Part shown: in pieces, positions 9,421 to 64,000 of the stretch | How positions within the stretch are numbered: the first letter of the stretch is position 1 | How the letters are laid out: each line of letters opens with the position of its first letter | NCBI GenBank assembly: GCA_036375165.1 | Contig: DASUSI010000178.1 | Coordinates: forward strand, 43,086-107,085 | Length of the DNA stretch: 64,000 nucleotides | Reading direction: 5' to 3' | Source of the DNA: Micromonosporaceae bacterium | GTDB taxonomy: Bacteria; Actinomycetota; Actinomycetes; Mycobacteriales; Micromonosporaceae | Made by a program: the position numbers and the translations under genes | The notes under the pieces: generated by a model | Seen by the model: only the letters and a program-made list of their open reading frames with translations | What the model was told of the DNA's origin: nothing | Database searches by the model: none

Positions 9421-9431
9421 CTCGCTCGGGG

Positions 9432-9755
9432 TCAGCCGCCGACGACCTCCTTGACGTCCTCCAGCACCGTGATGGTGACGATGACGTTGAGCGGGGAGTT
9501 GAAGTCGGCATGGAGGTGGAACTCGACACCGCCCATTCCGCCGCCTTCGTCTCCGTGCACGCCGACATTGGTCACGTGGACGTTCGCTTCTCCCAGGTGT
9601 GGTCGTCCTTCCAGGATTCCGAAGACTCCGCCGGAGGGCCGCCATTCGGCGGCCGTGATGATGACGGGGGATTCCTTCTTGATCGGGGCCCAGTTGAAGT
9701 TCCTGCGGACCCTGCCTTGTACGTTCTGATAGACGACTCGGATTGATTCGGCCAT
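9432..9755 (-). CDS. hypothetical beta-rich small protein ending in Gly-Gly
   Basis: 107 codons. AGGGAG lies 8 nt upstream of ATG 9755. G/C-ending codons. No motif recognised. C-terminus is ...LEDVKEVVGG-stop. Confidence 0.45.
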   Translation of the reverse strand: MAESIRVVYQNVQGRVRRNFNWAPIKKESPVIITAAEWRPSGGVFGILEGRPHLGEANVHVTNVGVHGDEGGGMGGVEFHLHADFNSPLNVIVTITVLEDVKEVVGG

Positions 9756-9838
9756 GCGATTTCTCCCTTGTCACGTGGTGGTGTGTGGGACGGGGACTCG
9801 CCGTCCAATCTGACACGGGCGTGAGGTCACAGTAACTT

Positions 9839-9867
9839 TGTGTCACTGATCAGACACACTATGTGTC
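9839..9867. repeat. nested inverted repeats TGTGTC-N8-GACACA-cta-TGTGTC (contains the CTGATCAG palindrome)
   Basis: Read directly: TGTGTC 9839-9844, GACACA 9853-9858, TGTGTC 9862-9867. Located in the divergent intergenic region between the 107-aa gene and the AlkZ/YcaQ-like gene. Confidence 0.5.
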
Positions 9868-9912
9868 TGAACGGACACCTCCGTCGCTCCCGGCGGCGAT
9901 TGGTGAGACCGT

Positions 9913-11061: not shown

Positions 11062-11066
11062 TCGGA

Positions 11067-49870: not shown

Positions 49871-50962
49871 TCAGGCCAGCAGTCGTGCGGCGTGGCGACC
49901 GGACACGGCCGCTGCGAGGAAGTACGCCGTGTCCTGGTCCAGACCACGCCCCATCGTGGACAACCGCACCGGAAGCCGCCGCAATCCGTCCAGCAAGCCG
50001 TCAGCGGGCACATGCACCACCCGGTGCCGCTCGTGCAGCGGCTTGAGTGCGGTCTCCACCATGGCGGCGAGGTCCGGTTCCAACGGGGAGGGCACCACGA
50101 GGTCCGCCGAAGCGAGCGCCACCCGGCCGTACGCGGTGAGGCTGTGGTGTGATACCCCACGGTGACGCGGCCGGGGATCGGCGTCGGAGATCCGCAGCGA
50201 GCCCACCGGTCTGCCGCCGAGTGCCGCTGTCGCGTTCACCGTCTCGCCGACCTCGACGCCGGAGAACCCCCATGGGGTACCGGTGCCAAGATTGCCCGGC
50301 CCCTGGGCGACCACCGTGATGTCCGCCCGCAGTGCGTGCCGGGCCGCCAGAAGCCCGGCGTGCACGTTGGTGGCCTCAAGGTCGCCTCCGAACGCCTGGC
50401 CTACGGTGACGGTGCCGACGAGGTGCCCGCGAAGCGCGTCCAGGTTGCGGCTGAACCAGGCGGGAAGCGCACCGCCGTCGGTCATCAGGTACGCCACCCG
50501 TGCGTCCGGGGCGTCAGTCTTCAAACCGGCGAGGACGGCGGGCAGCGCGGAGTGCAGGTCCGCGACCACCACCGGCATGCCGTCCAGAGCGTCGGCGCTT
50601 TCCAGGACGGCCCGGTGCGGAGAGTTCTCCTCGTCGGCCCCGAGCACGATCGGCTGCAGTGGCGTGTATCGGGCCTTGACCACATGTCCCGGACCGGTGG
50701 GGTCAGGCGGCAGCCGGTCCGGGATGGCCACCACGAACGCGTACCCTCCGGTGCCCAGGCCCAGCGCAAGGGCCCCGACGTTGAGCAGCACCCGGTCACC
50801 CACCTCGGGGGCGCCGGTGAGCTGTGGGTAGGCCAACGCCCGCACCTCACCGGGTTCCCGCTCCGACCGCCGCTGCACCGCCACGGTCAATTCCACGGCA
50901 CCCCGCCAGGAGCGACCCAGCCCGGTGACGGTCCCTGATCTCCATCGCACCACGCCCAGCAC
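49871..50962 (-). CDS. conserved hypothetical protein (DUF3866-like)
   Basis: About 363 aa with ...LNVGALALGLGTGGYAFVV..., ...VVADLHSALPAV..., ...GQAFGGDLEATNVHAGLL... My recollection is that this pattern belongs to DUF3866. Start uncertain among three GTGs (50962/50953/50950). Confidence 0.5.
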   Translation of the reverse strand: MLGVVRWRSGTVTGLGRSWRGAVELTVAVQRRSEREPGEVRALAYPQLTGAPEVGDRVLLNVGALALGLGTGGYAFVVAIPDRLPPDPTGPGHVVKARYTPLQPIVLGADEENSPHRAVLESADALDGMPVVVADLHSALPAVLAGLKTDAPDARVAYLMTDGGALPAWFSRNLDALRGHLVGTVTVGQAFGGDLEATNVHAGLLAARHALRADITVVAQGPGNLGTGTPWGFSGVEVGETVNATAALGGRPVGSLRISDADPRPRHRGVSHHSLTAYGRVALASADLVVPSPLEPDLAAMVETALKPLHERHRVVHVPADGLLDGLRRLPVRLSTMGRGLDQDTAYFLAAAVSGRHAARLLA

Positions 50963-51085
50963 CGTAGCCGACGCCGGTTGTGGCGCGGACCTGTCCTGGG
51001 CCTGGGCGATTGGACACCGCCACGCCGGGGGCCGGGATCGGATACCTGCCTCGGCACCAGCGGGAACGCTGCTAGCGTCGGGGAC

Positions 51086-52117
51086 GTGTCGCGCAGCCGT
51101 ACCGAACGCCTGGTCAACCTGGTGATCTGCCTGTTGGCCACACGACGGTTCCTGACCGCCGCGCAGATCGCGCAGACGGTGCCCGGGTACGAGCACAACG
51201 CGGCTGAGCCACGCGAACACGAGGCGTTCCAACGCAAGTTCGAAAGGGACAAGGCTGAGCTGCGGGAACTCGGGGTCCCGCTGGAAACCGGCACCGCGAG
51301 CGTCTTCGACACCGAGCCCGGCTACCGGATCGCCCGGCCCGCGTACGCGCTGCCGGACGTGATCCTGGAACCGGACGAGGCGGCGGCGGTGGGGATCGCG
51401 GCGCGGTTGTGGCAGCACGCCGGGTTGGCCTCGGCGGCGTCATCCGGCCTGTTGAAGTTGCGGGCCGCTGGCGTCGATGTGGACTCACAGGCCACCCTCG
51501 GCATCGAACCGGTGGTGACAGTGGAGCCTACCTTCGCCCCGCTCACCGGGGCCGCTGCGGACCGTCAGGCGGTCACGTTCGAGTACCGGGCGCCGGAGGC
51601 CGACGCGCCGACCCGCCGCCGGTTGCAGCCCTGGGGGGTGGTGTGCTGGCGAGGTCGCTGGTACGTGGTCGGTAAAGACCTGGACCGGGACGCGCCACGC
51701 TGCTTTCGGCTGTCCCGGATCGTGGGCGAGGTGCGCCGTACCGGTCCGGCGGCGGCGTACCAGTTGCCGGAGGGCATCGACCTGATCGACTACGTGGCCC
51801 GTTGGTCGGGCCCTCCGGAACACCGGGGACACGCCAGGGTGCGGCTACGACACGGCCGGGCGGCTGGGATCCGCCGCTGGGCCGAGCGGGTCACCGCCCA
51901 CCACGACGGCGACGTCGCGGTGTTGCGGTACTCCGACCCGGATTCACTCGCCGGGTATCTGGTGGGTTACGGCGCGGACGTGGTGGTGCTCGACCCGCCG
52001 GAGGTCTGCGACGCCGTGGTGGCACTGCTGGAGCGGACCGCCGCCCGCTACCCCGAGACAACGAGCGCGGCTACGGACCTGCCTGCCGCGCCCGCCTGGT
52101 CTGGGGAATCCCGATGA
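51086..52117 (+). CDS. pafB: WYL-domain transcriptional regulator PafB
   Basis: HTH RTERLVNLVICLLATRRFLTAAQIAQTVPGY and WYL region (YRAPEADAPTRRRLQPWGVVCWRGRWYVVG). ATGA overlap with pafC. Confidence 0.85.
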   Translation: MSRSRTERLVNLVICLLATRRFLTAAQIAQTVPGYEHNAAEPREHEAFQRKFERDKAELRELGVPLETGTASVFDTEPGYRIARPAYALPDVILEPDEAAAVGIAARLWQHAGLASAASSGLLKLRAAGVDVDSQATLGIEPVVTVEPTFAPLTGAAADRQAVTFEYRAPEADAPTRRRLQPWGVVCWRGRWYVVGKDLDRDAPRCFRLSRIVGEVRRTGPAAAYQLPEGIDLIDYVARWSGPPEHRGHARVRLRHGRAAGIRRWAERVTAHHDGDVAVLRYSDPDSLAGYLVGYGADVVVLDPPEVCDAVVALLERTAARYPETTSAATDLPAAPAWSGESR

Positions 52118-53061
52118 CCGCCAGCGTGGACCGGTTGTCGCGGCTGTTGAACCTGGTGCCGTACCTGCTCGGCAGGCCGGGAATCCGGCTCTCGGACGCC
52201 GCGGCCGACCTCGCGGTCAGTGAACGGCAGCTCCGGGACGACCTGGAGCTGCTGTGGGTGTGCGGCCTGCCCGGGTACGGCCCCGGCGACCTGATCGACA
52301 TGTCGTTCGACGGGGATACCGTCACGATCACGTACGACGCCGGGATCGATCGGCCGTTGCGGCTGACCCAGGACGAGGCACTCGCGCTGATCGTGGCGCT
52401 GCGGCTGCTCGCCGAAACTCCGGCGTTACCAAACCGGGGCTCGGTGGAGCGGGCCCTCGCGAAGATCGAATCCGCTGCCGGGGACGCCGCCGACACCGCC
52501 GGCAGGGTCGCGGTACGGCTCCCGGCGAACACTGACCGGCTCGGGCGGGTCCAGGAGGCGGTACGGCGCGGTCGGGCGCTGCGTATCACGTACTACACCG
52601 CCGGGCGGGACGAGACCACCGACCGGGTGGTTGACCCGATGCGGGTGCTGTTCGCGGCGGGACGGGCCTATCTGGAGGCCTGGTGCCGGCGTGTGGAGGC
52701 GGTGCGGCTGTTCCGGTTGGACCGGATCGACGCGGCGAGTGAGTTGGACGAACCTGCCAGTCCGCCGCCGCAGGCGCAGCCGACCCGACTGCCGGACGGG
52801 ATCTTCCAGCCCACCCCGGAGCTGCCGCTGGTCACCCTGCTGGTCGGCCGGGACGCCCGGTGGATCACGGAGTACTACCCGTGCGAGAACGTGGTGGAGG
52901 AGCCGGACGGTCGGTGGCGGGTCTCGCTGCGGGCCTCGGACCTGACCTGGGCGCGTCGGCTGGTGCTGGGACTGGGTCCCGGCGTGGAAGCGGTCGCCCC
53001 CGGACAGTTGCGGGACGCGATCGGCGCCGACGCGAGGGCGGCACTGGCCGCGTACCGGTAG
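52114..53061 (+). CDS. pafC: WYL-domain transcriptional regulator PafC
   Basis: SVDRLSRLLNLVPYLLGRPGIRLSDAAADLAVSERQLRDDLELLWVCGLPGYGPGDLID plus a WYL region (ITYYTAGRDETTDRVVDPMRVLFAAGRAYLEAWC). Confidence 0.85.
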   Translation: MTASVDRLSRLLNLVPYLLGRPGIRLSDAAADLAVSERQLRDDLELLWVCGLPGYGPGDLIDMSFDGDTVTITYDAGIDRPLRLTQDEALALIVALRLLAETPALPNRGSVERALAKIESAAGDAADTAGRVAVRLPANTDRLGRVQEAVRRGRALRITYYTAGRDETTDRVVDPMRVLFAAGRAYLEAWCRRVEAVRLFRLDRIDAASELDEPASPPPQAQPTRLPDGIFQPTPELPLVTLLVGRDARWITEYYPCENVVEEPDGRWRVSLRASDLTWARRLVLGLGPGVEAVAPGQLRDAIGADARAALAAYR

Positions 53062-53070
53062 GGTGCGGCG

Positions 53071-53349
53071 GTGGACCGCGTGGTGTGGGGCTTGGACCTG
53101 GTGTGGTGGCTGGTGGCGGGCATGGTGGTGCTCGCCGTCGTGGTGATGGCGCTGGCGGCTGTCCCCCTGCTGCGACGGTTGACCGGATTGCGGCGCGGCG
53201 TGCTGCGGCTGCAACGGCACGCGGCCACCCTGGAACGGTTGCGGGGCCGGGCTGAGCGACTCCAGCGGCGGGCCGAGGGGCTCGACGCCCGGTCTGCAGA
53301 GATACGGGAGGGAATGGACCTGTTACGGGCTGGTATTCGCCGCGGCTGA
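53071..53349 (+). CDS. hypothetical membrane-anchored coiled-coil protein
   Basis: 92 codons. N-terminal TM (LVWWLVAGMVVLAVVVMALAAV), then an Arg/Leu-rich heptad-like region. No family recognised. Confidence 0.4.
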   Translation: MDRVVWGLDLVWWLVAGMVVLAVVVMALAAVPLLRRLTGLRRGVLRLQRHAATLERLRGRAERLQRRAEGLDARSAEIREGMDLLRAGIRRG

Positions 53350-53454
53350 CCCGGCGGCGACGACTACGCAGAGTCGACAACCGGACGGCGGGGAGACGTC
53401 ACCGTCCGAGCCACGTACGATGGGCCTCGTCGTCCCCGCCTGGAGGTTCCTCCC

Positions 53455-53727
53455 ATGGGTGTTGTCAAGCCATGGCACATCATCGTTCTGGTGGTGGTGC
53501 TGATCCTTCTGTTCGGCGCGAAGCGGTTGCCGGACGCGGCGCGTGGCCTGGGTCGCTCGCTGCGCATCCTGAAAGCCGAGACGAAAAATCTCTCCGACGA
53601 CGACGTCGAGGTGAAAGCGGAGGCTCAGCACAGCCGTCAGCCGCTGTCCCCGACGATCGACGGGGAGGCGAAGCCGAAGCCGGCTGGCCAGCAGGCACCG
53701 ACCGCCGATCCACAACGCGACCGCTGA
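53455..53727 (+). CDS. tatA: twin-arginine translocase subunit TatA/E
   Basis: MGVVKPWHIIVLVVVLILLFGAKRLPDAARGLGRSLRILKAE (TM plus amphipathic helix). GGAGG RBS 8 nt upstream. Confidence 0.9.
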   Translation: MGVVKPWHIIVLVVVLILLFGAKRLPDAARGLGRSLRILKAETKNLSDDDVEVKAEAQHSRQPLSPTIDGEAKPKPAGQQAPTADPQRDR

Positions 53728-53753
53728 CGGTCGCCCACACCACGCGCTGACAC

Positions 53754-54674
53754 GTGAGCCCGCTGCTTCGCCGCCGGGACAGGTCCCGGTTCGCCATGGC
53801 GGCCGACGGGTCCATGACCCTCATGGATCACCTGCGGGAACTGCGCAGCCGGCTGTTCAAGGCTTGCCTGGGGATTCTCGTCGGGATGGTGTTCTGCCTG
53901 TTCTTCGCCGACAGGATCCTCGACTTCCTCAACGCGCCGTACTGCGAGTACCGAGCGTCGCGCGGTCAGGACATCAGCCGCTGTGGCTTCAACGCGGTGT
54001 CACCGATCGACACCTTCCTGCTGAACCTGCGGGTTGCCCTGTATGCCGGGCTGATCGTCAGCGCCCCGGTCTGGCTCTACCAGTTGTGGGCGTTCATCGC
54101 CCCCGGACTGCACCGGAACGAACGCCGCTACACGTACTACTTCGTCGGCGCGGCCACGCCGCTTTTCATCACCGGAGCCATGCTCGCCTACCTGGTGGTC
54201 GAAAAGGGCATGGAGTTCCTGATGGGCATGGTCAACGCGTACGACGTCACGCTGGACATCGGCGGGTACTTCAAATTCGTCACGAACATGATGCTGCTGT
54301 TCGGCTTCGGATTCGAGTTCCCGCTCGCGGTGGTGGCACTCAACCTGGTCGGCATGGTGAGCGCGAAGCGGCTGCTCGGCTGGTGGCGGGTGGCGGTGTT
54401 CCTGTGCTTCGCGTTCGCCGCGGTGGTCACCCCCACCCCGGACCCGTTCGGCATGACCGCCCTGGCAGTCCCGATGAGCCTGCTCTACATGGGTGCTGTC
54501 GGGGTGGCGTTCCTGAATGATCGCCGTCGTGCCCGTCAGGACGAGTTCGCCGCACTGTCTGACGACGAGGCGTCGCCGATCGACCAGGGGTCCCCGGTTG
54601 AGGAACCGGCACCGGTGTCGCCACCGACCCCGATCGACGAGCCGGGTGAACGGAACACCGACGACATCACCTGA
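53754..54674 (+). CDS. tatC: twin-arginine translocase subunit TatC
   Basis: MTLMDHLRELRSRLFK..., six TM helices, conserved ...LWAFIAPGL...ERR... motif. Pro/acidic C-terminal tail. Confidence 0.9.
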   Translation: MSPLLRRRDRSRFAMAADGSMTLMDHLRELRSRLFKACLGILVGMVFCLFFADRILDFLNAPYCEYRASRGQDISRCGFNAVSPIDTFLLNLRVALYAGLIVSAPVWLYQLWAFIAPGLHRNERRYTYYFVGAATPLFITGAMLAYLVVEKGMEFLMGMVNAYDVTLDIGGYFKFVTNMMLLFGFGFEFPLAVVALNLVGMVSAKRLLGWWRVAVFLCFAFAAVVTPTPDPFGMTALAVPMSLLYMGAVGVAFLNDRRRARQDEFAALSDDEASPIDQGSPVEEPAPVSPPTPIDEPGERNTDDIT

Positions 54675-54683
54675 CAGTGAGCC

Positions 54684-56207
54684 TCACCGCTCGGCAAGCA
54701 CCCGCTCTGCCGCTGGTACCGCCCGTTTCCGGTCGGCCGGCACCAGGCCGATCCGGGTACGGCGGTCCAGCAGGTCCGCGACGTCCAGAGCGCCCTCGTG
54801 ACGTACCGCAAAACGTAACTCCGCCAGGGTGGTGTCGATGCCTTCCGCGATCGGCGCGAGCAGCGCTGGATCTCCACCGGACTCGGCCCGTACCGCGAGG
54901 GCTTCACCGCCGTACTTGCGGATCAACCGCGGGGCGGCGACCACCCGGGTGTGGCCGGCTGCCCCCACCAAGGCCAGCCGGTGGGTGACGCAGGGGCCCG
55001 CCGTGACACCGTGGCGGGTCAGGGCCGTGTCGAGGGCGTGCTGCGCCATCCTCCGGTAGGTGGTGAGCTTGCCACCGATCACGGTGACCAGCCCGTCTCG
55101 TGAGGTGATCACGGCGTGCCGGCGGGACAGGTCCGCGGTGCGCCCACCGCGGGTGTCGAGCAGTGGCCGCAGTCCGGCGAAGGATCCGATCACGTCGTCT
55201 CGGGACACCGGGACCCGCAGCGCCCGGTTCACCGTGGCGAGCAGAAAGTCGATCTCCGCCTCGGTGGCTTCCGGTACGTCCGGCACCTCGCCGGAAACCT
55301 CCTCATCGGTCAGCCCCAGGTACACCCGGCGGTTCGGAGCGGGCAGCACGAACACGAAGCGGTTCCGCTCCCCGGGTACCGGAATCGTCAGCCCGGCGGA
55401 CAGTCCACCGAACCGTTCCTGTCCAAGCACCAGGTGCGACCCGCGGCTCGGCCGCAGCACGATACCCGGTGCCACCCGGCCGGCCCACACCCCGGTCGCG
55501 TTGACGACCACCCGGGCCGCCACGTCGAACCGCTCTCCGCTGCGTCCGTCCCGCAGCACGGCACCGTCTCCGGTCACCTGTTCAGCGGCGCACCGGGTGA
55601 GCACCACGGCACCGAGGCTCGCGGCGGTGCGGGCCAGGCACACCACCAGCCGGGCGTCGTCGTAGAGCTGGCCGTCCCAGCCGAGGATGCCGCCTCGCAG
55701 CCGGTCGGCACGCAGCGTCGGCGCGTACCGGTGGGTCTCGGCGGGGCTGATCCGCCGGGAGTGGGGAAGCAGCCCACCGCTGGTGCCGGCGGCTCGCCGC
55801 AGCAGGTCGCCGCCCAGATACCCGGCCCGGACCACGGTGCGAGGCACCCCTGGCAGCAGCGGCACGAGCTGTGGGAAGGGCCGGACCAGGTGTGGGGCGG
55901 TACGGCGGAGCAGGATGTCGCGTTCCAGCGCGCTCTCGTACGCGATCGACACGTCACCGGAGGCCAGGTACCGCAGTCCGCCGTGCACCAGCTTGGAACT
56001 CCACCGGCTCGTGCCGAAGGCGAGGTCGTGCTGGTCGACGAGGGCCACGGACAGTCCCCGCGCCGCCGCGTCGAGGGCGACTCCGGTCCCGGTCACTCCG
56101 GCCCCGATCACCAGCACGTCCACCAGCCCGGTGTCGCGCAACTCGGCCAGTTCCCGCTCCCGGCGAGCGGCGTTCAGCGAGGCCGGGCCTGGCTCAGGGG
56201 GCGACAT
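54684..56207 (-). CDS. glpD: FAD-dependent glycerol-3-phosphate dehydrogenase
   Basis: DVLVIGAGVTGTGVALDAAARGLSVALVDQHDLAFGTSRWSSKLVHGGLRYL is the canonical GlpD N-terminus. Confidence 0.9.
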   Translation of the reverse strand: MSPPEPGPASLNAARRERELAELRDTGLVDVLVIGAGVTGTGVALDAAARGLSVALVDQHDLAFGTSRWSSKLVHGGLRYLASGDVSIAYESALERDILLRRTAPHLVRPFPQLVPLLPGVPRTVVRAGYLGGDLLRRAAGTSGGLLPHSRRISPAETHRYAPTLRADRLRGGILGWDGQLYDDARLVVCLARTAASLGAVVLTRCAAEQVTGDGAVLRDGRSGERFDVAARVVVNATGVWAGRVAPGIVLRPSRGSHLVLGQERFGGLSAGLTIPVPGERNRFVFVLPAPNRRVYLGLTDEEVSGEVPDVPEATEAEIDFLLATVNRALRVPVSRDDVIGSFAGLRPLLDTRGGRTADLSRRHAVITSRDGLVTVIGGKLTTYRRMAQHALDTALTRHGVTAGPCVTHRLALVGAAGHTRVVAAPRLIRKYGGEALAVRAESGGDPALLAPIAEGIDTTLAELRFAVRHEGALDVADLLDRRTRIGLVPADRKRAVPAAERVLAER

Positions 56208-56805
56208 AGCGGTCCAGCATCAGCCGAAGTTCCGCGTCCAGCAGATCACGCTCCCCGGGTGTGGCCATGATGGGCCCGCTCAGCACAAAGGCCATCGCGG
56301 CGAGCAGTAGGGCCCGTGCCTGCCAGGCCGCGTCGCCCGGCCTTACTGATCCGTCCACGTGGCCGGCCCGTACCACGTCCTCGATCGCCGCCAGTTGGGT
56401 GTCCGTGCTGCTGCCACGCCGTTCCAGCAGGTAGGGCAGCAGGAACTCGGGGTCCACTTCCACGATCTTGCGCAGCAGTGGGTGCGCCCGGGTGCGGCGT
56501 ACCGCCGAGACGATGCCTTCCACGAGCCGGCCCCGGGCACTGCCACCCGGCATGTCGAAGCTGGCCGCCGCCACGGCGGCCGACTCCCGGGTCATCAGGG
56601 CCGCCACCACGGCCCGGACGTTGGGCCAGCGCCGGTACAGGGTGGCACGGGACACCCCAGCGCGGCGGCTTATGTCGGCCATCGTCACCCGCCGCATCCC
56701 GACCGCGAGCAGCATCTGGTACGCGGCATGCAGGATCCGCTCCTCGTCGATGGCGTTCGGTGCCACGGTGGTGCCGGTGGCGGTGTTGCCACGCTGCGAC
56801 ATCAT
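56194..56805 (-). CDS. TetR/AcrR family transcriptional regulator
   Basis: HTH MRRVTMADISRRAGVSRATLYRRWPN. ATG 56805 preferred over track start 57237. 3' end overlaps the glpD start by 14 nt. Confidence 0.8.
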   Translation of the reverse strand: MMSQRGNTATGTTVAPNAIDEERILHAAYQMLLAVGMRRVTMADISRRAGVSRATLYRRWPNVRAVVAALMTRESAAVAAASFDMPGGSARGRLVEGIVSAVRRTRAHPLLRKIVEVDPEFLLPYLLERRGSSTDTQLAAIEDVVRAGHVDGSVRPGDAAWQARALLLAAMAFVLSGPIMATPGERDLLDAELRLMLDRYVAP

Positions 56806-56860
56806 GTGCCTCAATGTATCAGCAGCTACCGACTGACCACCGAACCACCGAAGGCGAGCC

Positions 56861-58537
56861 ATGAGCGAGTCCGACATCCCCGTCGTCGAGATGCACCCGT
56901 ACCGCTGGGGGGATCCGGCACGGCAGGCACACCTGCCCGAGCCGGTGCTGGCGGCGCTGCGCGGTTTCGGGATCCGCGAGCCGGCAAGGCCACCGGTGGC
57001 ACCGGAGGAGGTCGCACTGCGGCCGAGCGCGCTCCTGGAGGGGCCACGCTCGGCTCTGGAAGCGACCATCGGGGCAGCGCACATCAGCGTCACGGACCGT
57101 GAACGGGTCCGGCACACCATGGGTTGGTCCACACCGGACCTGCTGCGGCTGCGGTCAGGCGACACCGTGGACGCGCCGGACGCTGTGCTCTTTCCCGGCT
57201 CCCATGATGAGGTTCTCGCGCTGCTCGGGGTCTGCACGACACACCGGCTGGCGGTGGTGCCCTATGGCGGAGGTACGTCGGTGGTGGGTGGTCTGGCACC
57301 GCTGCGGGAAGGCTTCGCCGGCGTGGTGACGCTGGACCTGCGGCGGCTGGACCGGCTGCTCTCGGTGGACCAGGAGTCCCGTCTCGCGGTGCTCGAATCC
57401 GGTGTGCGCGGGCCACGGGCTGAGCGGTTGCTGGCGGCACACGAACTGACGCTCGGTCACTTCCCCCAATCATACGAGGGCGCGACGATCGGAGGGTACG
57501 CCGCCACCCGTTCCAGCGGACAGGCATCCGCCGGCTACGGGCGGTTTGACGAGATGGTCCTCGGGGTCACCCTTGCCACACCGCGCGGCAGCCTCCGCCT
57601 GGGCCTGGCACCGCGCTCTGCCGCCGGGCCGGACCTGCGGCAGCTCGTCCTGGGATCAGAGGGCGTGTTCGGGGTGATCACGTCGGTCACCGTCCGGGTC
57701 CGGCCCCGGCCGCAGTCGCGGGTGTACGAGGGATGGCGGTTCGACTCCTTCCAGGCCGGGGCTGACGCGCTGCGCCGTCTCGCGCAGGACGGACCGTTAC
57801 CGACCGTATTGCGCCTGTCCGATGAGGCGGAGACCGCGGTCAACCTCGCCAACCCGGCACAGGCGCTGACCGGAGGGACGGGTGGTTGCCTGGCGGTCTG
57901 CGGCTACGAAGGCACGGCCCGCGACGTCCAGTACCGTCGGGAAGGCGCTGCTGTCGTGCTGCGCGACGCGGGCGGTCAGGCATTGGGCACCGGCCCGGGT
58001 GAAGCCTGGCGGGAAGGCCGGTACCGGGCACCGTACCTGCGGGATCCGTTGCTGGACGCTGGTGCCCTGGTGGAGACCCTGGAAACCGCTACCTTCTGGT
58101 CCAACCTGCACCCGCTGCGGCAGGCGGTCACCGATGCGCTGACCGGCTCCCTGTCGGGCGAGGGCACACCGCCGCTGGTTCTCTGCCATATTTCTCACGT
58201 GTACGAGACCGGAGCCTGCCTGTACTTCACGGTGGTCTGTGCCCAGACTGAGGATCCGGTGGCCCAGTGGCGGGCGGCCAAGGCCGCCGTGAACACGGCG
58301 ATCGGTGACGCTGGCGGCACCATCAGCCACCACCACGCCGTCGGCTTCGACCACCAGCCGGGCTACCTGCGTGAGGTCGGCCCACTGGCCATCGAGGCCC
58401 TGCGTGCGGTGAAACGTACGTTCGACCCTGAGCGGATCCTCAATCCCGGCGTACTGCTGGGGTCTGTGACTGCCGGCGGGTTCCGGGACCCTGCCGGTTT
58501 CGGCATGCCCGGTGAGAGCGAGGCGACAGCGGAGTGA
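56861..58537 (+). CDS. FAD-linked oxidase, alkyl-dihydroxyacetonephosphate-synthase-like flavoprotein
   Basis: N-terminal YRWGDP motif. PCMH-type FAD domain (VLFPGSHDEVLALLGVCTTHRLAVVPYGGGTSVVGG). C-terminal ISHHHAVG. Confidence 0.8.
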   Translation: MSESDIPVVEMHPYRWGDPARQAHLPEPVLAALRGFGIREPARPPVAPEEVALRPSALLEGPRSALEATIGAAHISVTDRERVRHTMGWSTPDLLRLRSGDTVDAPDAVLFPGSHDEVLALLGVCTTHRLAVVPYGGGTSVVGGLAPLREGFAGVVTLDLRRLDRLLSVDQESRLAVLESGVRGPRAERLLAAHELTLGHFPQSYEGATIGGYAATRSSGQASAGYGRFDEMVLGVTLATPRGSLRLGLAPRSAAGPDLRQLVLGSEGVFGVITSVTVRVRPRPQSRVYEGWRFDSFQAGADALRRLAQDGPLPTVLRLSDEAETAVNLANPAQALTGGTGGCLAVCGYEGTARDVQYRREGAAVVLRDAGGQALGTGPGEAWREGRYRAPYLRDPLLDAGALVETLETATFWSNLHPLRQAVTDALTGSLSGEGTPPLVLCHISHVYETGACLYFTVVCAQTEDPVAQWRAAKAAVNTAIGDAGGTISHHHAVGFDHQPGYLREVGPLAIEALRAVKRTFDPERILNPGVLLGSVTAGGFRDPAGFGMPGESEATAE

Positions 58538-59406
58538 TGCGCTCCTTCACGGTGCTGGTGAATCCGATCTCGGGGGACGGCAGAGCCCCGCAACGCACCC
58601 GGCCGGTCGCGGATCTGCTGCGCGGGGCGGGAGCGACAGTACGCGAGGTGGTGACCCAGAGCGCCAGCCACGCCACACAGGCCGCACGTGCGGCGGCTCG
58701 GGCGGGAGATGTGGTGATCGCGGCCGGTGGTGACGGGCTGGCACGAGATGTCGCCGACGCCGTGGTACCCGCCGACGGGGTGATGGGGATCCTCCCTGCC
58801 GGACGGGGCAACGACCTGGCCCGCAAGGTCGGCATTCCGACCGAGCCCACCGCACTCGCGAAGCTGTTGCTGGACGGTGAGCCCCGCAGGATCGACGTCC
58901 TGGAGTGCGGCGGTCGGATCATCCCGGGAAACCTGTACGTGGGCATCGACTCCACCGCGAACGCCATGATCAACGCGAGGCGATGGATCCCGGCACCGTT
59001 GCTGTACCGGCTCGCGCCCGTGGTGACCATGCTGCGGTGGCATCCGGTCGACTTCCGACTGACCGTCGACGGCCGGACACAGTCGGTGCGAGGGCACACC
59101 ATCGTGGTCGGCAACTCCGGCACGTACGGTCATGGACTGGACATCGTTCCTTCGGCGGTGGTGGACGACGGGGTCTTCGACGTCATGGTTGCCGGAGACA
59201 TGTCCCGCTGGAAGATCGCGGCCGTGATCCGTGAGGCCACCGAAGGCAGGCACGTACGCCGACCGGAGATCTCCGTAATGACCGCTCAGGCGATCACCAT
59301 CGAGGCGGCACGGCCGGTGCCGGTCTGCGGCGACGGCGACTACATCGGCGAGTTGCCGGTCACCGTCCGGCTGGTGCCGGCAGCACTGAAGTTACTCCGC
59401 CCATGA
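58534..59406 (+). CDS. diacylglycerol kinase family lipid kinase (YegS/Rv2252-type)
   Basis: VLVNPISGDGRA..., VVIAAGGDGLARDV (GGDG), ILPAGRGNDLAR. Start overlaps the upstream stop. Confidence 0.85.
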   Translation: MMRSFTVLVNPISGDGRAPQRTRPVADLLRGAGATVREVVTQSASHATQAARAAARAGDVVIAAGGDGLARDVADAVVPADGVMGILPAGRGNDLARKVGIPTEPTALAKLLLDGEPRRIDVLECGGRIIPGNLYVGIDSTANAMINARRWIPAPLLYRLAPVVTMLRWHPVDFRLTVDGRTQSVRGHTIVVGNSGTYGHGLDIVPSAVVDDGVFDVMVAGDMSRWKIAAVIREATEGRHVRRPEISVMTAQAITIEAARPVPVCGDGDYIGELPVTVRLVPAALKLLRP

Positions 59407-59591
59407 CGTGATCCCGATGATCTCCTCCGGTGGAGGCCGGCTCAGCGGGATCGACCTGAAATCTGTCACGGCCCCGCTAGAATTTTGCCGTACGTCCAGG
59501 ACAGAGCTGCTGACCGCTCGCACCGCGTCCGGGCGTGGGGCGGGCGGGCCAGCTCCGCGAGCCGTTACGTCTTGACGTGGAGGTGTTGACC

Positions 59592-60065
59592 ATGACGCTG
59601 CGCTTTGACCCCTTCCGGGACTTCGACAGGCTGGCCAGCCAGGTGCTCGGCGCGGCCCGCACCCCGGATCTGATGCCCATGGACTGCTACCGCCAGGGTG
59701 ATCAGTACGTGCTTCATTTCGACCTGCCTGGCATCGATCCCGAATCACTCGAGGTCACCACAGAGAACAACACCCTCACAGTGCGTGCCGAGCGACGTCG
59801 TGTCGACAGTGAGGACATCAGCTATCTGGTCTCGGAACGCGCTGCGGGCACATACGCCCGGCAACTCGTGCTCGGGGAGGGCATGAATACCGACCGGATC
59901 CATGCTGACTACCGGGACGGAGTGCTCACCGTCACGATCCCGGTCGCCGAGGAAGCCAAGCCCCGCCAGATCCAGATCAGCCGGGGCGGGCAGCACAAGG
60001 TGATCACGGGCGAGGTGACCGACTCGTCGAGCACCAACTCCCGCGAAGCCACCGAGATCCGGTAA
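59592..60065 (+). CDS. Hsp20/alpha-crystallin family small heat-shock protein
   Basis: RFDPFRDFDRL..., alpha-crystallin core PMDCYRQGDQYVLHFDLPGIDPESLEVTTENNTLTVRAER...GVLTVTIPV. GGAGG RBS before ATG 59592. Confidence 0.9.
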   Translation: MTLRFDPFRDFDRLASQVLGAARTPDLMPMDCYRQGDQYVLHFDLPGIDPESLEVTTENNTLTVRAERRRVDSEDISYLVSERAAGTYARQLVLGEGMNTDRIHADYRDGVLTVTIPVAEEAKPRQIQISRGGQHKVITGEVTDSSSTNSREATEIR

Positions 60066-60110
60066 CCGGGTTGGCTGGAAGCTGATCCGTACATTGCTGA
60101 GCCGGGGGCT

Positions 60111-60142
60111 GGCGACGCCTTCTCACCACGCGGTGAGTCGCC
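60111..60142 (+). terminator. imperfect GC hairpin GGCGAC-gccttc-TCACC-acgc-GGTGA-GTCGCC downstream of hsp20
   Basis: Read directly, 46 nt after the hsp20 stop. No U-tract. Confidence 0.3.
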
Positions 60143-60227
60143 AGAGACCCTCACGCCACCGCGCCCCGCCGCCGGGTCACGGCAACGGGACAGCGGGGAC
60201 CTGCTGAGCGACGCCCAGCACGCGGCG

Positions 60228-60345
60228 TACCCGATGGGCACCGCCGCCGAAGCGATCAGAGTGACCCCGGGCTTCCTCCGGGCGCTCGGTAGGGCGGGAC
60301 CGTTTCGGCCGCACCGGTCAGCGGACAGCGGAGGGGGACCGCCGC
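60228..60345 (+). pseudogene. truncated MerR/HspR-type HTH remnant
   Basis: Translates to YPMGTAAEAIRVTPGFLRALGRAGPFRPHRSADSGGG, matching the MerR-family HTH pattern (Y.I..AAE...V....LR.....GL..P.RS..GG). The only canonical start is the ATG inside the HTH. Similarity stops at about 60340, where recombinase debris begins. Confidence 0.35.
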
Positions 60346-60700
60346 TTAGTCGCACGGATAGATCCGAGTGGAGTCCAGCGAGGCGTGGCCAAGGAGTTCA
60401 GCGACAGTGACGACGTCGGTGCCGGAGCGGATCAAGTCGGTACCAAAGCTGTGGCGCATCACCAAAGTCTGGACCGAGGCAGGCGGCACCTGGAAGACCT
60501 GCGCGCCCGGCGACCACAGTCGGTGACCACTAACTCGCGGTCACGCGAGAGGAATACCGACTACTCGATCAATGGAGCCTGCCAGTCTCAACGGCCAGGT
60601 ACTTGCCGATCGCACGCTCCACCACGTGTTTCACCCCTCTTGCTGAGAACGGCTTGACAGCGCAGTAGGCGAATGCGACTCGATGGCCGGCTTGGTACAG
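60346..60700 (-). pseudogene. tyrosine recombinase (integrase) C-terminal remnant, frameshifted and truncated
   Basis: 60346-60462 reads [38 protein letters not shown]-stop (box II R-H...catalytic Y). The frame is broken by TGA at 60541-60543. PFSARGVKHVVERAIGKYLAV (60590-60652) continues in another frame. No intact N-terminal domain. Confidence 0.6.
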
Positions 60701-60815
60701 CGACATCCCCGGTGCATAGCTTATCCCTGCCTGCCTAAGTTCGCCGAACCCGATGTATTTCGCCGCTTCACGGCGACTCTGTGAATATAACGTCGCATTG
60801 AGGGAGTTGGGCGTT

Positions 60816-63800
60816 ATGGTCGCTTTTATACCGTTTGTGGAGTCCCTGGTCTATGGCAATGCGCTGGCGCCAGCGCAGAACCACGGGGACTGGACGATCG
60901 CCAAGCCATCGCCTACGGGCACGCAGTGGCTCGCGCATCACCTCGATCGGATGCTGCCAGCGTTCGAAAGCTGGCTGGTCGCAGGGCAGCTGCCACCACT
61001 AACCGCCTGGGACGGGCAGTTTCCGACGCCTTGGGACCCGACCAACACAGTGCCGCTGACCGGTGGCCTGAACGGCACCTGGACCGGGATCGCAACGCTG
61101 GACGATCTGGGGGCCGCACTGGCCGCGCGGTTGAAAGCCGTGGCGTTGGACGCCCCAGAACTCATCGGCAAGCGCAAGGCACCGTTCAGCTACCGGTTCT
61201 GGGGCTACCTGCGCTGGGCATGGACCATTCGGGAGCGGTTCCTGGGCCGTCAGGTGATGCCGGTGGGCACGGTGGTCGACCGGGACGGCACGCAGTTGTC
61301 GGCTGTGTCATTCACCGACGTGTTCAACGATCTGCACCGCAACTGGCACATCTCGCCAAACGCACCTGTGGCCCCGACGCCGGGGTTTCGCACCACGGTG
61401 GGGCAACGCGTTCGACTCGGCATCGTGTCCGCCAGGGGCGAGGACTTCCTGCGCTTCCACCGCGAGCACATGAATCTGTTCCACCGCTGGCTGGATCGCA
61501 CAGGCCAGGCCCACCTGTTGCCGGTCGACATGGGCGGGCCGGGCGGATGGCCGGAGAGCGGACCCAACGTGCCACCGTCGCCGTACGCCGCCAACGAGAA
61601 CGCGGTCTCGCCCGGATCGCCGCTGCAGGGCCAGACCAGCATCAATCAGATCGGCGATATCGAGTTCGGCTACCACGTCACCGGTCATGGGCAGAACACC
61701 GACATCGGACCGCTGTCACACAACAACTACGTCCCCCGGTTCCACAACTGGCACGGCTGGATCGACGCGCAGTGGTGGTGGCGGGAACCGAGGTTCGTGC
61801 GCTCCGACCCGACGACGGGCGAGCGGGAGCGGTTCTTCCGTGTCGTCCTACAGAACGGTGCCGACCTGCCGGGGCTGCCGGCGTTGTCCATCGTCCGGGA
61901 TCCCGCCGTGGCCGCCGACCAGGTGTACCCGGCCACCGCCGTCGGCGGGCTGAACCTGACCACCGGCGCCGGGTCACTGCGGATGCGGCTGTACGTCCGC
62001 GACCCGTTCGATCGCACGCTGCGGATGCGGCTGATCGCCGAGGTACTCGACTTCAACGGAGCAGTCGGTGAGACCGTCACGGTGTTGCGAACCATCGGCA
62101 CCGGTGGCGACCACCCGCTGGATACCGAGTTCCTGGAGACCATAAGTTTCGCCAGCGCCTTCGCCTCCGACGATCCCACCATGGTCAACGCCGCCGTCGG
62201 TTTCCTCGCCGCCCGGATCCGGATCACCGGTAACCTGTGGGTCCCGAACACCGCCACACCGGATGACCCGACGACCTCACACGATCCAGGGTTCGTGCAC
62301 GAGGACGTCACCTATATCGATCTGGTGCGGGAGAAGCAGGCACCGGACGTGACGCTCTACCTCAACCGGTCGAGCTTCTCGCGTGACCAGGTGAACGCCA
62401 CCCTCGGCGGTGGGCCCACAGCGAGCTTTCCCCACTCGTTCCTGGTCGCGGTGCAGGACCGCACCTCGCCCGCGCAGGCCACGCCGGCCTGGCCGGCCGC
62501 GGTCGCCGACGAGGTCAAGGGCCTGCTGGTGGGCCTGCAGCCGTCGGCTGGCCTGTTCGACGACCCAGCACACCAGCCCACCGTGGAGCTGTTTGACCCG
62601 GCCACCTCGGCGGTGGTGCCAGGAGTCACGGTCGTGTTGGCCGGCCCGCCGGACAAGGAAGACCCGACCCTGCCGCCGGAGGTGCCGCAGCGGTACACAT
62701 GGCGGTACTCGGTGGTGTTCGACGCCAGCGGCGCAGCGTTCGACGACCTGGCCACCGGCACGCAGCGTGAGGTGCTGCTGCGGGTCCGCACCGGCGACCG
62801 CGCCGGCAACGCGGTCAGCGCCCAGGCCAGCGTTCGGCTCTTCGTCGACGCCAACCCGTACATGCTCGACGGCAATGTGCCCTGGCTGTCCATCGACACG
62901 AGGGTGTTCAACGTGCTGGAAGGACAGACCAGACTCGGCGAGACCTACACCGCAGGCCGTGACCCACTGGACCTGCTGACCGGCTACCTCAACCGCCTGA
63001 ACACCGGCACCACGGGCGGGCAGACCTTCGGCGACCTGCCGACCGAGGGCGTCGCGGCCGCTCTGGAGTACGCCCCACAGGTGCCTAACCCGCAGACCGG
63101 GGTGGCCACACCTGTCCGCAACTTCGCGCTGGCCAGGGTGCGGATCGCGACCCAGGCCGGGGCAAAAGGAGTGCGGCTGTTCTTCCGGCTGTTCCGCTAC
63201 GCCGCACCCAGCCTGCTGTTCGACACCGCGCGCGGCTACCGGTCCTTCGCCGACGGGCTGGGCCGGGTGATACCGCTGGTCGGGTTCGAGTCACAGACCA
63301 ACGGCGCCGCGCTGACCTCGATCCCGTTCTTCGGCAGCCCGCGGCTGATGCTGTCCGCATCGCCGATGACCGACCAGACCGACCCGACCAACGTCCACGA
63401 ATTCGGCGGTGCCGCGGGCGAACAGGTCTGGTACTTCGGCGCTTGGCTGGATGTCAACGTGCCGTCGGTGCAGATCCCCGAGGTGTACGTGGCGGCCAAT
63501 CCCGACGGCCCGTTCACCGCTGGGCAGATGCGTTCGATCTGCACCCTTATGACCGACTTCCATCAGTGCCTGGTCGCCGAGATCTGCTTTGACGCCGACC
63601 CGACGACAGCGCTGGCCTCTCCTTTCGAGTCGGACAACCTCGCGCAACGCAATCTGGTCGTGCTGGAAAGCGACAATCCCGGCGATGTGTGGACCCGCAC
63701 CGTCGAGCACAGCTTCGAGATCGACCTTCACCGTCCTGCGCTAGGCCCCGATATCGACCAATCCGATGACGAGAACGTCGCTGTGGACCACGGAGTCGAT

Positions 63801-64000
63801 CACGGCGAACCCTGCCGGGGATGTGGCGATCATGACGTGGACGACGACCTATTGTGCGCGCACTGCGCCGGGCTGGGCGCGCGCGTACCGCTGCTGCCCG
63901 ACGATCCCCGTCAGGTCATCTCGACCTTCCAGTTCCAGAAGCTCCTGCTCGACCAAGCGATGGACTTGGCCTTCCGCGACCCCGAGGGCATGCGGCTGAT
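60816..64000 (+). CDS. large multidomain protein, 3'-partial (over 1,061 aa): tyrosinase/hemocyanin-type di-copper domain + unassigned region + CxxC-x10-CxxC knuckle
   Basis: I translated the frame by hand from ATG 60816 (AGGGAG at 60801-60806) to base 64000 and found no stop. Codons are G/C-ending. Motifs: FNDLHRNWH, FLRFHREHMNLFHRWL, GYHVTGHG, YVPRFHNWHGWIDAQW, CRGCGDHDVDDDLLCAHC. Not in the supplied track because it lacks an in-window stop. Confidence 0.75.
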   Translation, partial: MVAFIPFVESLVYGNALAPAQNHGDWTIAKPSPTGTQWLAHHLDRMLPAFESWLVAGQLPPLTAWDGQFPTPWDPTNTVPLTGGLNGTWTGIATLDDLGAALAARLKAVALDAPELIGKRKAPFSYRFWGYLRWAWTIRERFLGRQVMPVGTVVDRDGTQLSAVSFTDVFNDLHRNWHISPNAPVAPTPGFRTTVGQRVRLGIVSARGEDFLRFHREHMNLFHRWLDRTGQAHLLPVDMGGPGGWPESGPNVPPSPYAANENAVSPGSPLQGQTSINQIGDIEFGYHVTGHGQNTDIGPLSHNNYVPRFHNWHGWIDAQWWWREPRFVRSDPTTGERERFFRVVLQNGADLPGLPALSIVRDPAVAADQVYPATAVGGLNLTTGAGSLRMRLYVRDPFDRTLRMRLIAEVLDFNGAVGETVTVLRTIGTGGDHPLDTEFLETISFASAFASDDPTMVNAAVGFLAARIRITGNLWVPNTATPDDPTTSHDPGFVHEDVTYIDLVREKQAPDVTLYLNRSSFSRDQVNATLGGGPTASFPHSFLVAVQDRTSPAQATPAWPAAVADEVKGLLVGLQPSAGLFDDPAHQPTVELFDPATSAVVPGVTVVLAGPPDKEDPTLPPEVPQRYTWRYSVVFDASGAAFDDLATGTQREVLLRVRTGDRAGNAVSAQASVRLFVDANPYMLDGNVPWLSIDTRVFNVLEGQTRLGETYTAGRDPLDLLTGYLNRLNTGTTGGQTFGDLPTEGVAAALEYAPQVPNPQTGVATPVRNFALARVRIATQAGAKGVRLFFRLFRYAAPSLLFDTARGYRSFADGLGRVIPLVGFESQTNGAALTSIPFFGSPRLMLSASPMTDQTDPTNVHEFGGAAGEQVWYFGAWLDVNVPSVQIPEVYVAANPDGPFTAGQMRSICTLMTDFHQCLVAEICFDADPTTALASPFESDNLAQRNLVVLESDNPGDVWTRTVEHSFEIDLHRPALGPDIDQSDDENVAVDHGVDHGEPCRGCGDHDVDDDLLCAHCAGLGARVPLLPDDPRQVISTFQFQKLLLDQAMDLAFRDPEGMRL

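Follow-up and report, generated by a model that had tools for sequence, protein, structure and literature searches.

A predicted, very divergent type-3 copper domain on a modular scaffold from a Micromonosporaceae bacterium

A 64,000-nucleotide stretch of DNA from a Micromonosporaceae bacterium (NCBI GenBank assembly GCA_036375165.1, contig DASUSI010000178.1, positions 43,086 to 107,085 of the forward strand; here called the window) ends inside a large gene whose product, HEX6077752.1, is 1,423 residues long. Sequence comparison identifies the N-terminal head of this protein as a bona fide, very divergent type-3 copper domain that is homologous to the tyrosinases and has all of its copper ligands conserved. 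The remainder is a folded, conserved, and modular scaffold that other bacteria join to quite different catalytic heads.

Is the reading frame a real gene? From the ATG at 60816 the forward strand runs through 1,061 sense codons to position 64000 with no stop, and the Shine-Dalgarno-like motif AGGGAG lies 9 nucleotides upstream. A preliminary description of the window had pointed out both the hidden open reading frame (ORF) and this motif, and both are there as described. The closest in-frame stop upstream is at 60717-60719. A second candidate start exists at ATG 60753, but homologue alignments begin at the methionine at 60816. The guanine-plus-cytosine (GC) content of the frame at codon positions one, two, and three is 0.678, 0.487, and 0.855, the coding pattern expected in a high-GC organism. 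The translated ORF is 100% identical to the N-terminal 1,061 residues of HEX6077752.1 (P0001), a protein annotated as [quoted passage not shown] (MAG, metagenome-assembled genome), and 362 further codons of the gene lie beyond the window end. Metagenomes and genomes hold about 47 full-length homologues of 1,377 to 1,788 residues that are 41 to 59% identical; all are labeled hypothetical, and none has a precomputed Pfam domain except one with an extra M23 peptidase. Because these homologues exist, the frame is a real gene under selection rather than an ORF that arose by chance. The remaining ORFs in the list for 60816-64000 are its off-frame shadows, as had been supposed, and they cluster between loci only because they overlap a conserved gene.

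The copper head

The head (residues 1 to 345) consists of a family-specific helical N-terminal extension, about residues 1 to 160, followed by a four-helix core that bears the histidines, about residues 163 to 321. In an AlphaFold2 model of residues 1 to 350 (predicted local distance difference test [pLDDT], 86.3; predicted template modeling score [pTM], 0.86), H174 and H178 sit on helix 163-179, H215 on helix 207-229, H287 and H291 on helix 276-293, and H313 on helix 307-321. This predicted layout, with two histidines plus one on each of two helix pairs, is the one that a type-3 center requires. The six histidines are invariant in 26 of 26 homologues in an alignment spanning 41 to 59% identity, and they are present in all 47 domain-bearing sequences of a larger, 50-sequence alignment. 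Further residues of the head that are invariant in the 26-sequence alignment are W177, F211, F214, N303, N304, R308, F309, W312, and D317.

The six histidines fall into a proposed CuA and a proposed CuB site. At CuB, the spacing H-x3-H-x21-H and the context P-x-F-x3-H-x3-D-x2-W are classical; the preliminary description had likened this site, with its F..H..(V/I)D..W context, to that of Streptomyces tyrosinase, and the spacing is indeed identical. The residues and coordinates that it quoted are likewise all correct, namely H174 (61335-61337), H178, H215, H287, H291, and H313 (61752-61754) in the head and C1000, C1003, C1014, and C1017 (63813-63866) further along. At CuA the spacing is H-x3-H-x36-H. 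The Streptomyces pattern (1WX2 numbering) is H-x15-H-x8-H, whereas arthropod hemocyanins have H-x3-H on one helix and a single histidine on the next. The window CuA site resembles the arthropod hemocyanin arrangement rather than that of Streptomyces. No cysteine of the head is conserved among the homologues, and the Cys-His thioether of some type-3 copper proteins is therefore absent.

How can so divergent a domain be connected to a known family? The link is a transitive one. A HMMER profile of residues 1 to 350 (alignment A3) was searched against 1.84 billion representative proteins and gave 66 matches at E ≤ 1e-3. The weak tail of these matches, with library-wide E values of 5e-6 to 7e-4 over profile positions of about 170 to 336, comprises proteins of 160 to 480 residues that pass the threshold of the Pfam Tyrosinase family, PF00264, independently (P0099, 2.4e-15; P0105, 2.7e-14; P0106, 8.9e-15; P0110, 3e-14; P0111, 3.4e-10; and P0113, 3.7e-12). 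When alignment A3 was compared by hhalign with an alignment of seven of these bridging tyrosinases, the result was a probability of 98.7% and an E value of 1.6e-16 over 147 columns (query residues 167 to 320), with all six histidines in register. The paired motifs are LHRNWH with H..WH, FLRFHR with FL.FHR, YHVTGH with WH...H, and FHNWHGWID with F..WH..(V/I)D, and the bridging tyrosinases share the CuA arrangement as well. The bridging set in turn matches solved structures of mollusc hemocyanins (1.4e-45), Bacillus megaterium tyrosinase (about 2e-16), and Streptomyces tyrosinase 1WX2 (5.6e-16), as well as catechol oxidases, polyphenol oxidases (PPOs), prophenoloxidases, and o-aminophenol oxidase; its CuB region matches that of the solved tyrosinases and hemocyanins. 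Histidine conservation, the transitive profile search, and the profile-profile comparison are together the reasons for regarding the head as a type-3 copper domain. The claim of a di-copper domain in the preliminary description thus held up under transitive profile recovery and under conservation of the six histidines.

Several results speak against this assignment. Neither the window protein nor the full-length protein has a Pfam or NCBIfam match at E ≤ 1, and the window protein stays under the PF00264 gathering threshold of 22.6 bits. When 31 family members were scanned singly, one reached PF00264, at an E value of 0.061; full-length family member P0054 matches it by itself with an E value of 6.9e-4, at 20.5 bits against the 22.6-bit cutoff. 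Searches of the PDB by phmmer, with the family profile, and with the domain profile found no tyrosinase. Foldseek comparison of the head model with the PDB was nonsignificant (best E value, 0.84; template modeling [TM] score, about 0.24), although 11 of the 40 listed weak matches, ranks 1 to 5 included, are type-3 copper proteins (hemocyanin functional units, prophenoloxidases, or bacterial tyrosinases) and so lend the assignment weak support. Finally, the residue after the first CuB histidine is V, G, or A and not the asparagine common in tyrosinases; because of this replacement, it is not predictable whether the activity would be monophenolase, diphenolase, or another one.

Could the site hold something other than copper? 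The helical bundle might be degenerate or repurposed, binding zinc, iron, or nothing, with its likeness to tyrosinase being purely historical. The negative or nonsignificant outcome of direct profile and structure searches would fit this, as would a phmmer match to two-domain laccases (8AIP and 9IX9; E value, 0.003) at residues 152 to 230 (window positions 61269-61505), in the copper-site region, which shows that histidine-rich motifs can match by chance. That match weakened to an E value of 0.3 with the family profile and disappeared with the domain profile, and it was set aside as chance. The invariance of six ligands at 41 to 59% identity and between phyla argues for a maintained metal site, every ligand is in register in the hhalign comparison, and the flanking signature residues F211, F214, R216, P307, F309, D317, and W320 are conserved. 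A non-copper site is therefore very improbable.

A different doubt concerns the chemistry. The head could be an O2 carrier or sensor of the hemocyanin kind, or an enzyme acting on small aminophenols or catechols in a metabolic pathway, with the scaffold serving for oligomerization. The H-x3-H element of CuA recalls arthropod hemocyanin and not Streptomyces, the asparagine after the first CuB histidine is missing, and the structural neighbors ranked highest are hemocyanins. The first-ranked of these nonsignificant Foldseek neighbors are keyhole limpet and squid hemocyanin. Set against this, the bridging relatives are Pfam tyrosinases with the same H..WH motif in CuA, no biosynthetic gene cluster or conserved metabolic neighbor accompanies the gene, and the hydrolase heads found on the same scaffold (described below) fit a common macromolecular target better than they fit O2 transport. 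A carrier or small-molecule role is accordingly quite unlikely, and an oxidase acting on a macromolecule is the reading carried forward here.

The scaffold and its interchangeable heads

What follows the copper domain? The preliminary description had found some 700 residues in which nothing could be assigned. It remains the case that they have no Pfam or NCBIfam name, but they are not featureless: they belong to a confidently modeled array of beta-sandwiches that is shared with other enzyme heads. An AlphaFold2 model of residues 346 to 1423, built with the 50-sequence alignment, has a pLDDT of 89.5 and a pTM of 0.87, and pLDDT falls below 50 (to about 40) solely at residues 977 to 995. The model has beta-sandwiches at about residues 356 to 475, 495 to 547, and 589 to 676 and a beta-rich conserved core at about 695 to 970. 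After a linker come a three-helix element (about 1037 to 1085), another beta-sandwich (about 1088 to 1214), a helical hairpin (about 1216 to 1265), and an eight-stranded beta-sandwich (about 1274 to 1422). Conservation is highest at about residues 680 to 975, where the motifs WLS.D.RVF, NFA.A.VR, VR.FFRLF, YFG.WLD.N, HQC.V.E, and SDNLAQRN are found; an invariant H916-x-C918-x3-E922 lies in this core together with SDNLAQRN.

Foldseek comparison of the scaffold with the PDB returned generic immunoglobulin (Ig)-like and macroglobulin-like arrays, among them PrgB (1e-6), the C123 region of antigen I/II, complement C3 and C4, Escherichia coli alpha-2-macroglobulin, integrin legs, and transglutaminase barrels, and a viral library gave generic DUF11, FN3, and tail proteins. 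No catalytic fold was among the matches from either source. Several C2 domains were also matched (probability, 1.0; TM score [TMt], 0.46 to 0.57; about 145 columns). The full-length protein has no Pfam C2 match at E ≤ 1; in the model, the C2-like fold would correspond to the terminal eight-stranded sandwich.

The first beta-sandwich, at residues 346 to 495, stands apart. Relatives with other heads match the protein only from about residue 490 to 520 onward, so the scaffold proper is taken to start near residue 500 and this sandwich to belong to the head module. By analogy, it is a candidate active-site shielding domain. This raises the possibility of a latent proenzyme, in which the copper head is the sole functional part and the sandwich, or even the whole scaffold, keeps the active site closed until proteolysis or a change in conformation opens it. 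C-terminal shielding domains are known for bacterial and eukaryotic PPOs (PMC10526336 and PMC11803259), and the precedents include plant and fungal PPOs with their C-terminal domains, the Verrucomicrobium pre-pro-tyrosinase, and hemocyanin functional units. A head-specific sandwich that directly follows the copper domain and lies outside the shared scaffold would suit such a role, the best (nonsignificant) Foldseek matches are mollusc hemocyanin units with the same order of alpha domain and beta-sandwich, and the absence of a caddie gene makes built-in regulation plausible. The sandwich, however, resembles no known shielding domain in sequence (Pfam, E ≤ 1), and about 900 further residues are as conserved as the head and are reused with unrelated heads, which is unexpected of a disposable propeptide. 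Latency can be entertained tentatively, and as regards residues 346 to 495 it is compatible with a scaffold that targets the head.

Between the two parts of the scaffold lies a variable linker, the least conserved and most gapped region of the protein (column identity, 0.04 to 0.12), which differs widely among homologues in length and composition. Here the preliminary description had noted a Cys4 knuckle after an acidic, Asp/His-rich stretch (63741-63812). The knuckle is real and, together with the Asp/His tract, is kept in the closest relatives, about 20 in number (P0001 to P0019 and P0022), but both are missing from the other half of the family (P0020 to P0047) and from the scaffold relatives with other heads. 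The clade restriction rules the knuckle out as a family-defining metal site; it is a clade-specific insertion, possibly metal binding. The Asp/His-rich tracts also look metal binding, and in some relatives they grow to long runs of His and Asp, such as HGGDHDHEDDDHDDHGNHDDHGDDDHDDHDHGDHEGE in P0007. It is conceivable, as pure speculation, that the Cys4 insertion provides built-in copper handling.

Which organisms carry these proteins? A scan for relatives that took one genome per species returned 60 loci. Copper-headed, full-length relatives occur in Pyrinomonadaceae and Bryobacteraceae (Acidobacteriota), Acidimicrobiia, Gemmatimonadales, Longimicrobiales, Chloroflexota, a deltaproteobacterial MAG, Saprospiraceae, and cultured Flavobacteriaceae (Arenibacter echinorum DSM 23522, A. 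hampyeongensis JCM 17788, Arenibacter sp. F20364, and Galbibacter sp. EGI 63066). They also occur, at 42 to 44% identity, in the haloarchaeon Salinigranum salinum YJ-50-S2 (L008, 8001-12176) and a related MAG (L009), which implies transfer of the whole 1,400-residue architecture between domains of life. In the Gemmatimonadales MAG L025 (about 7929-12260; P0030), the homologue is seemingly split over three overlapping frames; either a pseudogene with frameshifts or a mistake in long-read assembly may account for this.

In some 40 other loci, the match to the query is confined to residues from about 490 or 520 to 1260. Since a scaffold-core profile searched against a large database gave short fragments only, the heads of this second group were counted instead in 32 genome loci, where the sequence upstream of the scaffold core was scanned with Pfam (Table 1). 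Galactose/glyoxal-oxidase-like heads dominate the count, followed by LodA-like, glutaminase, and peptidase heads; examples are L037 (6372-10301), L045 (6255-10784), L041 (6459-10373), and L028 (6681-9878), out of the loci L028 to L065, all without a signal peptide. Among metagenomic proteins, P0049 has a pro-kumamolisin (sedolisin) head on the scaffold and P0011 an extra M23 peptidase ahead of the copper head. The copper domain itself is found with a different downstream region in three metagenomic proteins of 608 to 827 residues (P0067, P0068, and P0072; E values of about 1e-25 to 1e-29), of which P0067 and P0072 have a weak Gly_rich_2 domain at the C terminus. The copper head therefore also travels without the scaffold.

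Literature searches found no description of the copper-head family, the scaffold, or its fusions with other heads, and as far as can be told both the scaffold and the swapping of heads are undescribed.

Table 1. Features of the window gene and its surroundings, and head types on related scaffolds
Feature	Window position or occurrence	Strand	Basis
C-terminal tyrosine recombinase remnant (presumed), 47 residues, about 330 nucleotides upstream of the gene	60346..60489	-	translation
Shine-Dalgarno-like AGGGAG	60801..60806	+	read from sequence
First 1,061 codons of the 1,423-codon gene for HEX6077752.1, running off the window end	60816..64000	+	open frame, identical P0001, GC at third codon position 0.855
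Predicted type-3 (coupled binuclear) copper domain, divergent, residues 1-345	60816..61850	+	AlphaFold2, hhalign, profile retrieval of PF00264 proteins
Proposed CuA: H174 and H178 (LHRNWH) on one helix, H215 (FLRFHR) on the next	61335..61460	+	invariance, tyrosinase alignment
Proposed CuB: H287 and H291 (YHVTGH), H313 (PRFHNWHGWIDAQW, that is, P-x-F-x3-H-x3-D-x2-W)	61674..61754	+	invariance, tyrosinase alignment
Beta-sandwich specific to copper heads, residues ~346-495	61851..62300	+	strands at model residues 11-130, pLDDT >90
Shared scaffold, part one, residues ~500-975, several beta-sandwich domains	62313..63740	+	conservation, AlphaFold2, Foldseek, sharing with other heads
Variable linker, residues ~976-1045, acidic His-rich tract, partly disordered	63741..63950	+	alignment, AlphaFold2
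Cys4 knuckle C1000-x2-C1003-x10-C1014-x2-C1017	63813..63866	+	CxxC...CxxC in relatives, pLDDT 80-88
Beginning of the scaffold's C-terminal third; residues 1062-1423 off-window	63951..64000	+	full-length sequence, AlphaFold2 secondary structure
Galactose/glyoxal-oxidase-like head (GO-like_E_set; Glyoxal_oxid_N in 15; Kelch)	21/32 loci		Pfam scan
LodA-like head	5/32 loci		Pfam scan
Gln_deamidase_2 (glutaminase) head	4/32 loci		Pfam scan
Peptidase_M14 head	1/32 loci		Pfam scan

Genomic context and proposed function

The gene stands alone. When the flanking ORFs of 17 loci from many phyla were compared all against all, no conserved flanking gene emerged, and the shared clusters all lie inside the gene itself; four metagenomic homologues have entirely different neighborhoods. 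No caddie, chaperone, immunity, or operon partner was found in the 17 loci, and the window ORFs upstream of the gene are unrelated to the MelC1 caddie, in line with the earlier remark that a caddie gene is absent. The suggestion that this gene opens an acquired system continuing beyond the window finds no support: past the window end comes, first of all, the rest of the same gene, and the gene has no conserved partner.

Recombinase debris upstream had also been reported, and the short minus-strand ORF concerned (Table 1) encodes what we take to be the catalytic motif from the C terminus of a tyrosine recombinase, left as a remnant only. Another short ORF, at 60569-60706 on the minus strand, may be a further recombinase fragment. 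Still further upstream are ORFs that presumably represent ordinary chromosome: one like a flavin adenine dinucleotide (FAD)-dependent glycerol-3-phosphate dehydrogenase (54684-56207, minus strand) and, on the plus strand, one like an FAD-linked oxidase (56861-58537), one like a diacylglycerol kinase (58534-59406), and one like Hsp20 (59535-60065). The GC content is 0.71 to 0.72 at 50000-58000 and then 0.635 to 0.68 at about 59000-61500, that is, in the intergenic region and the gene; the drop would fit a segment gained by horizontal transfer and beginning close to the integrase remnant. Given this remnant, the GC drop, and a patchy distribution that includes a haloarchaeon, horizontal acquisition of the gene is plausible.

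No neighbor is common to all scaffold genes of the second group of loci; those that recur are specific to a head or a lineage. In LodA-headed loci, an FAD-binding GGGPAG protein of about 375 residues lies adjacent (L031, 10236-11366; L036, 5559-6650; L041, 10377-11501; and L065, 9226-10359). LodB is a flavoprotein needed for maturation of the LodA cofactor. The resemblance of the GGGPAG protein to LodB suggests that the LodA heads on the scaffold may be functional quinoproteins. In related Acidobacteriota, a small, conserved ORF of about 133 to 169 residues (MLEHQEHEENVDRLF...PNDGPPLLWLKSQARYVRA...) adjoins scaffold genes with galactose/glyoxal-oxidase-like heads (L053, 10041-10439; L057, 5854-6333; and L058, 10095-10496; also L048, L052, and L063) and, in the first three, starts at most about 40 nucleotides from the end of the headed gene. 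It may be a lineage-specific partner or mere synteny.

What, then, might the protein do? The best explanation is that it is probably a type-3 copper oxidase head mounted on a general-purpose scaffold that brings it to, or holds it in place on, a substrate that is a macromolecule or a surface. Copper binding, the chemistry of an oxidase and not of an O2 carrier, the kind of substrate, the targeting role, and the cellular location are all inferred, as follows. In the first module (residues 1 to 345, probably plus the sandwich at 346 to 495), the six histidines would bind two copper ions. With O2 held on these ions in side-on peroxide form, a phenolic substrate, whether phenol, catechol, aminophenol, or the side chain of a tyrosine, would be oxidized to an o-quinone. 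The second module (residues of about 500 to 1423), some 900 residues in which Ig- and macroglobulin-like sandwiches are combined with two helical elements and, at the end, a C2-like domain, would be a general carrier that places the catalytic head on its target. The whole protein would thus work as a tethered oxidase, either modifying or cross-linking proteins or making reactive quinones locally. Targeting is the most likely role of the scaffold because the same scaffold carries varied oxidase and hydrolase heads in other bacteria.

Two considerations tell against this explanation. The classes of head found here are normally extracellular, yet the members examined have no export signal: neither a Sec or Tat signal nor a transmembrane segment was detected in the window protein, as its first description had stated, or in any scaffold-superfamily member examined, including M23-extended, sedolisin-headed, LodA-headed, and galactose/glyoxal-oxidase-headed proteins. 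An ordinary tyrosinase recovered by the same search (P0098) carries a clear signal peptide. In addition, the case for the function of the scaffold comes solely from its fold class and its modular distribution.

A constant scaffold with interchangeable heads also brings to mind a polymorphic effector, antimicrobial or otherwise used in conflict. In that case the scaffold would deliver, recognize, or self-assemble, and the heads would be warheads (toxic quinones, H2O2, or proteolysis) directed against competitors or deployed during phage infection, with release by a route that needs no classical signal, such as lysis. LodA-type enzymes are described as H2O2-generating antimicrobials in competition and biofilm development (PMC4417212). 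The gene is solitary, is scattered over bacterial phyla and a haloarchaeon, often lies beside PIN or antitoxin genes, transposases, and integrase remnants, and here has a GC content below that of the flanking chromosome; the C2-like domain has a fold that perforin uses for membrane binding. On the other hand, PADLOC defense models and PHROGs gave no match at E ≤ 1, no conserved neighbor resembles an immunity gene, no secretion system or signal is associated, and oxidases are atypical as defense effectors. The variable domain is moreover N terminal, unlike that of classical polymorphic toxins. An effector role is thus unlikely, and a targeted oxidase remains the preferred explanation.

A broader proposal can be put forward only tentatively: the scaffold (residues of about 500 to 1423) may define an unrecognized class of large modular proteins without signal peptides, widespread among bacteria and present in at least one haloarchaeon. 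It would be a delivery or targeting platform whose interchangeable N-terminal enzymes (type-3 copper oxidase, copper-radical oxidase of the galactose/glyoxal-oxidase kind, LodA-like quinoprotein oxidase, glutaminase, and peptidases) act on proteins or produce reactive species; the window gene would be its tyrosinase-headed version and the head a new, deep-branching type-3 copper clade. If this is true, the platform could serve to cross-link a polymer of the cell surface or matrix oxidatively, or it could serve intermicrobial or antiviral conflict.

The implications are 4-fold. (i) A whole type-3 copper clade spanning Actinomycetota, Acidobacteriota, Gemmatimonadota, Chloroflexota, Bacteroidota, and a haloarchaeon has been overlooked by surveys and classifications built on PF00264 matches (e.g., PMC11803259), because the family falls below the threshold that they use. 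(ii) A hemocyanin-like H-x3-H element in CuA without a caddie or an export signal prompts one to ask how the protein acquires its copper and where it acts. (iii) Reuse of one scaffold, some 900 residues long, under at least six other heads, mostly O2-dependent oxidases, points to a shared biology such as targeting, cross-linking, or conflict. (iv) Cultured carriers (Arenibacter echinorum DSM 23522, A. hampyeongensis JCM 17788, Galbibacter sp. EGI 63066, and Salinigranum salinum YJ-50-S2) make the family directly testable, and a scaffolded, protein-directed tyrosinase could be of use in bioconjugation.

Comparison with known systems

The nearest recognized relatives of the head are the bridging bacterial members of PF00264 with an H-x2-W-H motif in CuA (P0099, P0102, P0106, P0110, P0111, and P0113), which have the same series of motifs as the window protein: H..WH, G..FL.FHR, (W/Y)H...H, and P.F..WH..(V/I)D..W. 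They are 160 to 480 residues long and pass the Pfam threshold, and related ones have signal peptides, whereas the window domain is below Pfam detection. The window protein differs from them further in its extra helical N-terminal extension of about 160 residues, its long loop insertions, and its fusion to about 1,080 further residues.

With Streptomyces MelC2/MelC1 (1WX2) and Bacillus megaterium tyrosinase (3NM8), the window protein shares the spacing and context of CuB, and its homology to them runs through the bridging set; direct sequence and Foldseek matches to these tyrosinases are nonsignificant. Unlike MelC2/MelC1, it has neither a caddie gene nor Tat or Sec export. MelC2 is a single domain of about 270 to 300 residues, and the window protein, with 1,423 residues in many domains, is five times longer. 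The two also differ in CuA, H-x15-H-x8-H in MelC2 and H-x3-H-x36-H here.

The order of an alpha-helical copper domain followed by a beta-sandwich is also that of mollusc hemocyanin functional units and latent PPOs. No sequence similarity between the window sandwich and the shielding domains of those proteins was detected (Pfam, E ≤ 1), and the candidate for the Cys-His thioether of hemocyanin and latent PPO is missing from the window head.

The scaffold proteins with other heads, such as those of Nitrosomonas sp. Nm84, Roseobacter sp. EG26, and Reyranella soli, have in common with the window protein a region of about 750 residues (query residues of about 500 to 1260) at 29 to 41% identity, with the same invariant motifs. 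They differ in their N-terminal catalytic heads, and those headed by LodA keep a LodB-like neighbor. Large LodA fusions are mentioned in a survey of LodA-like proteins, but with catalase domains (PMC4417212). The head is a divergent form of known type-3 copper proteins, and the scaffold that carries it is, as far as can be told, itself new to the literature searched.

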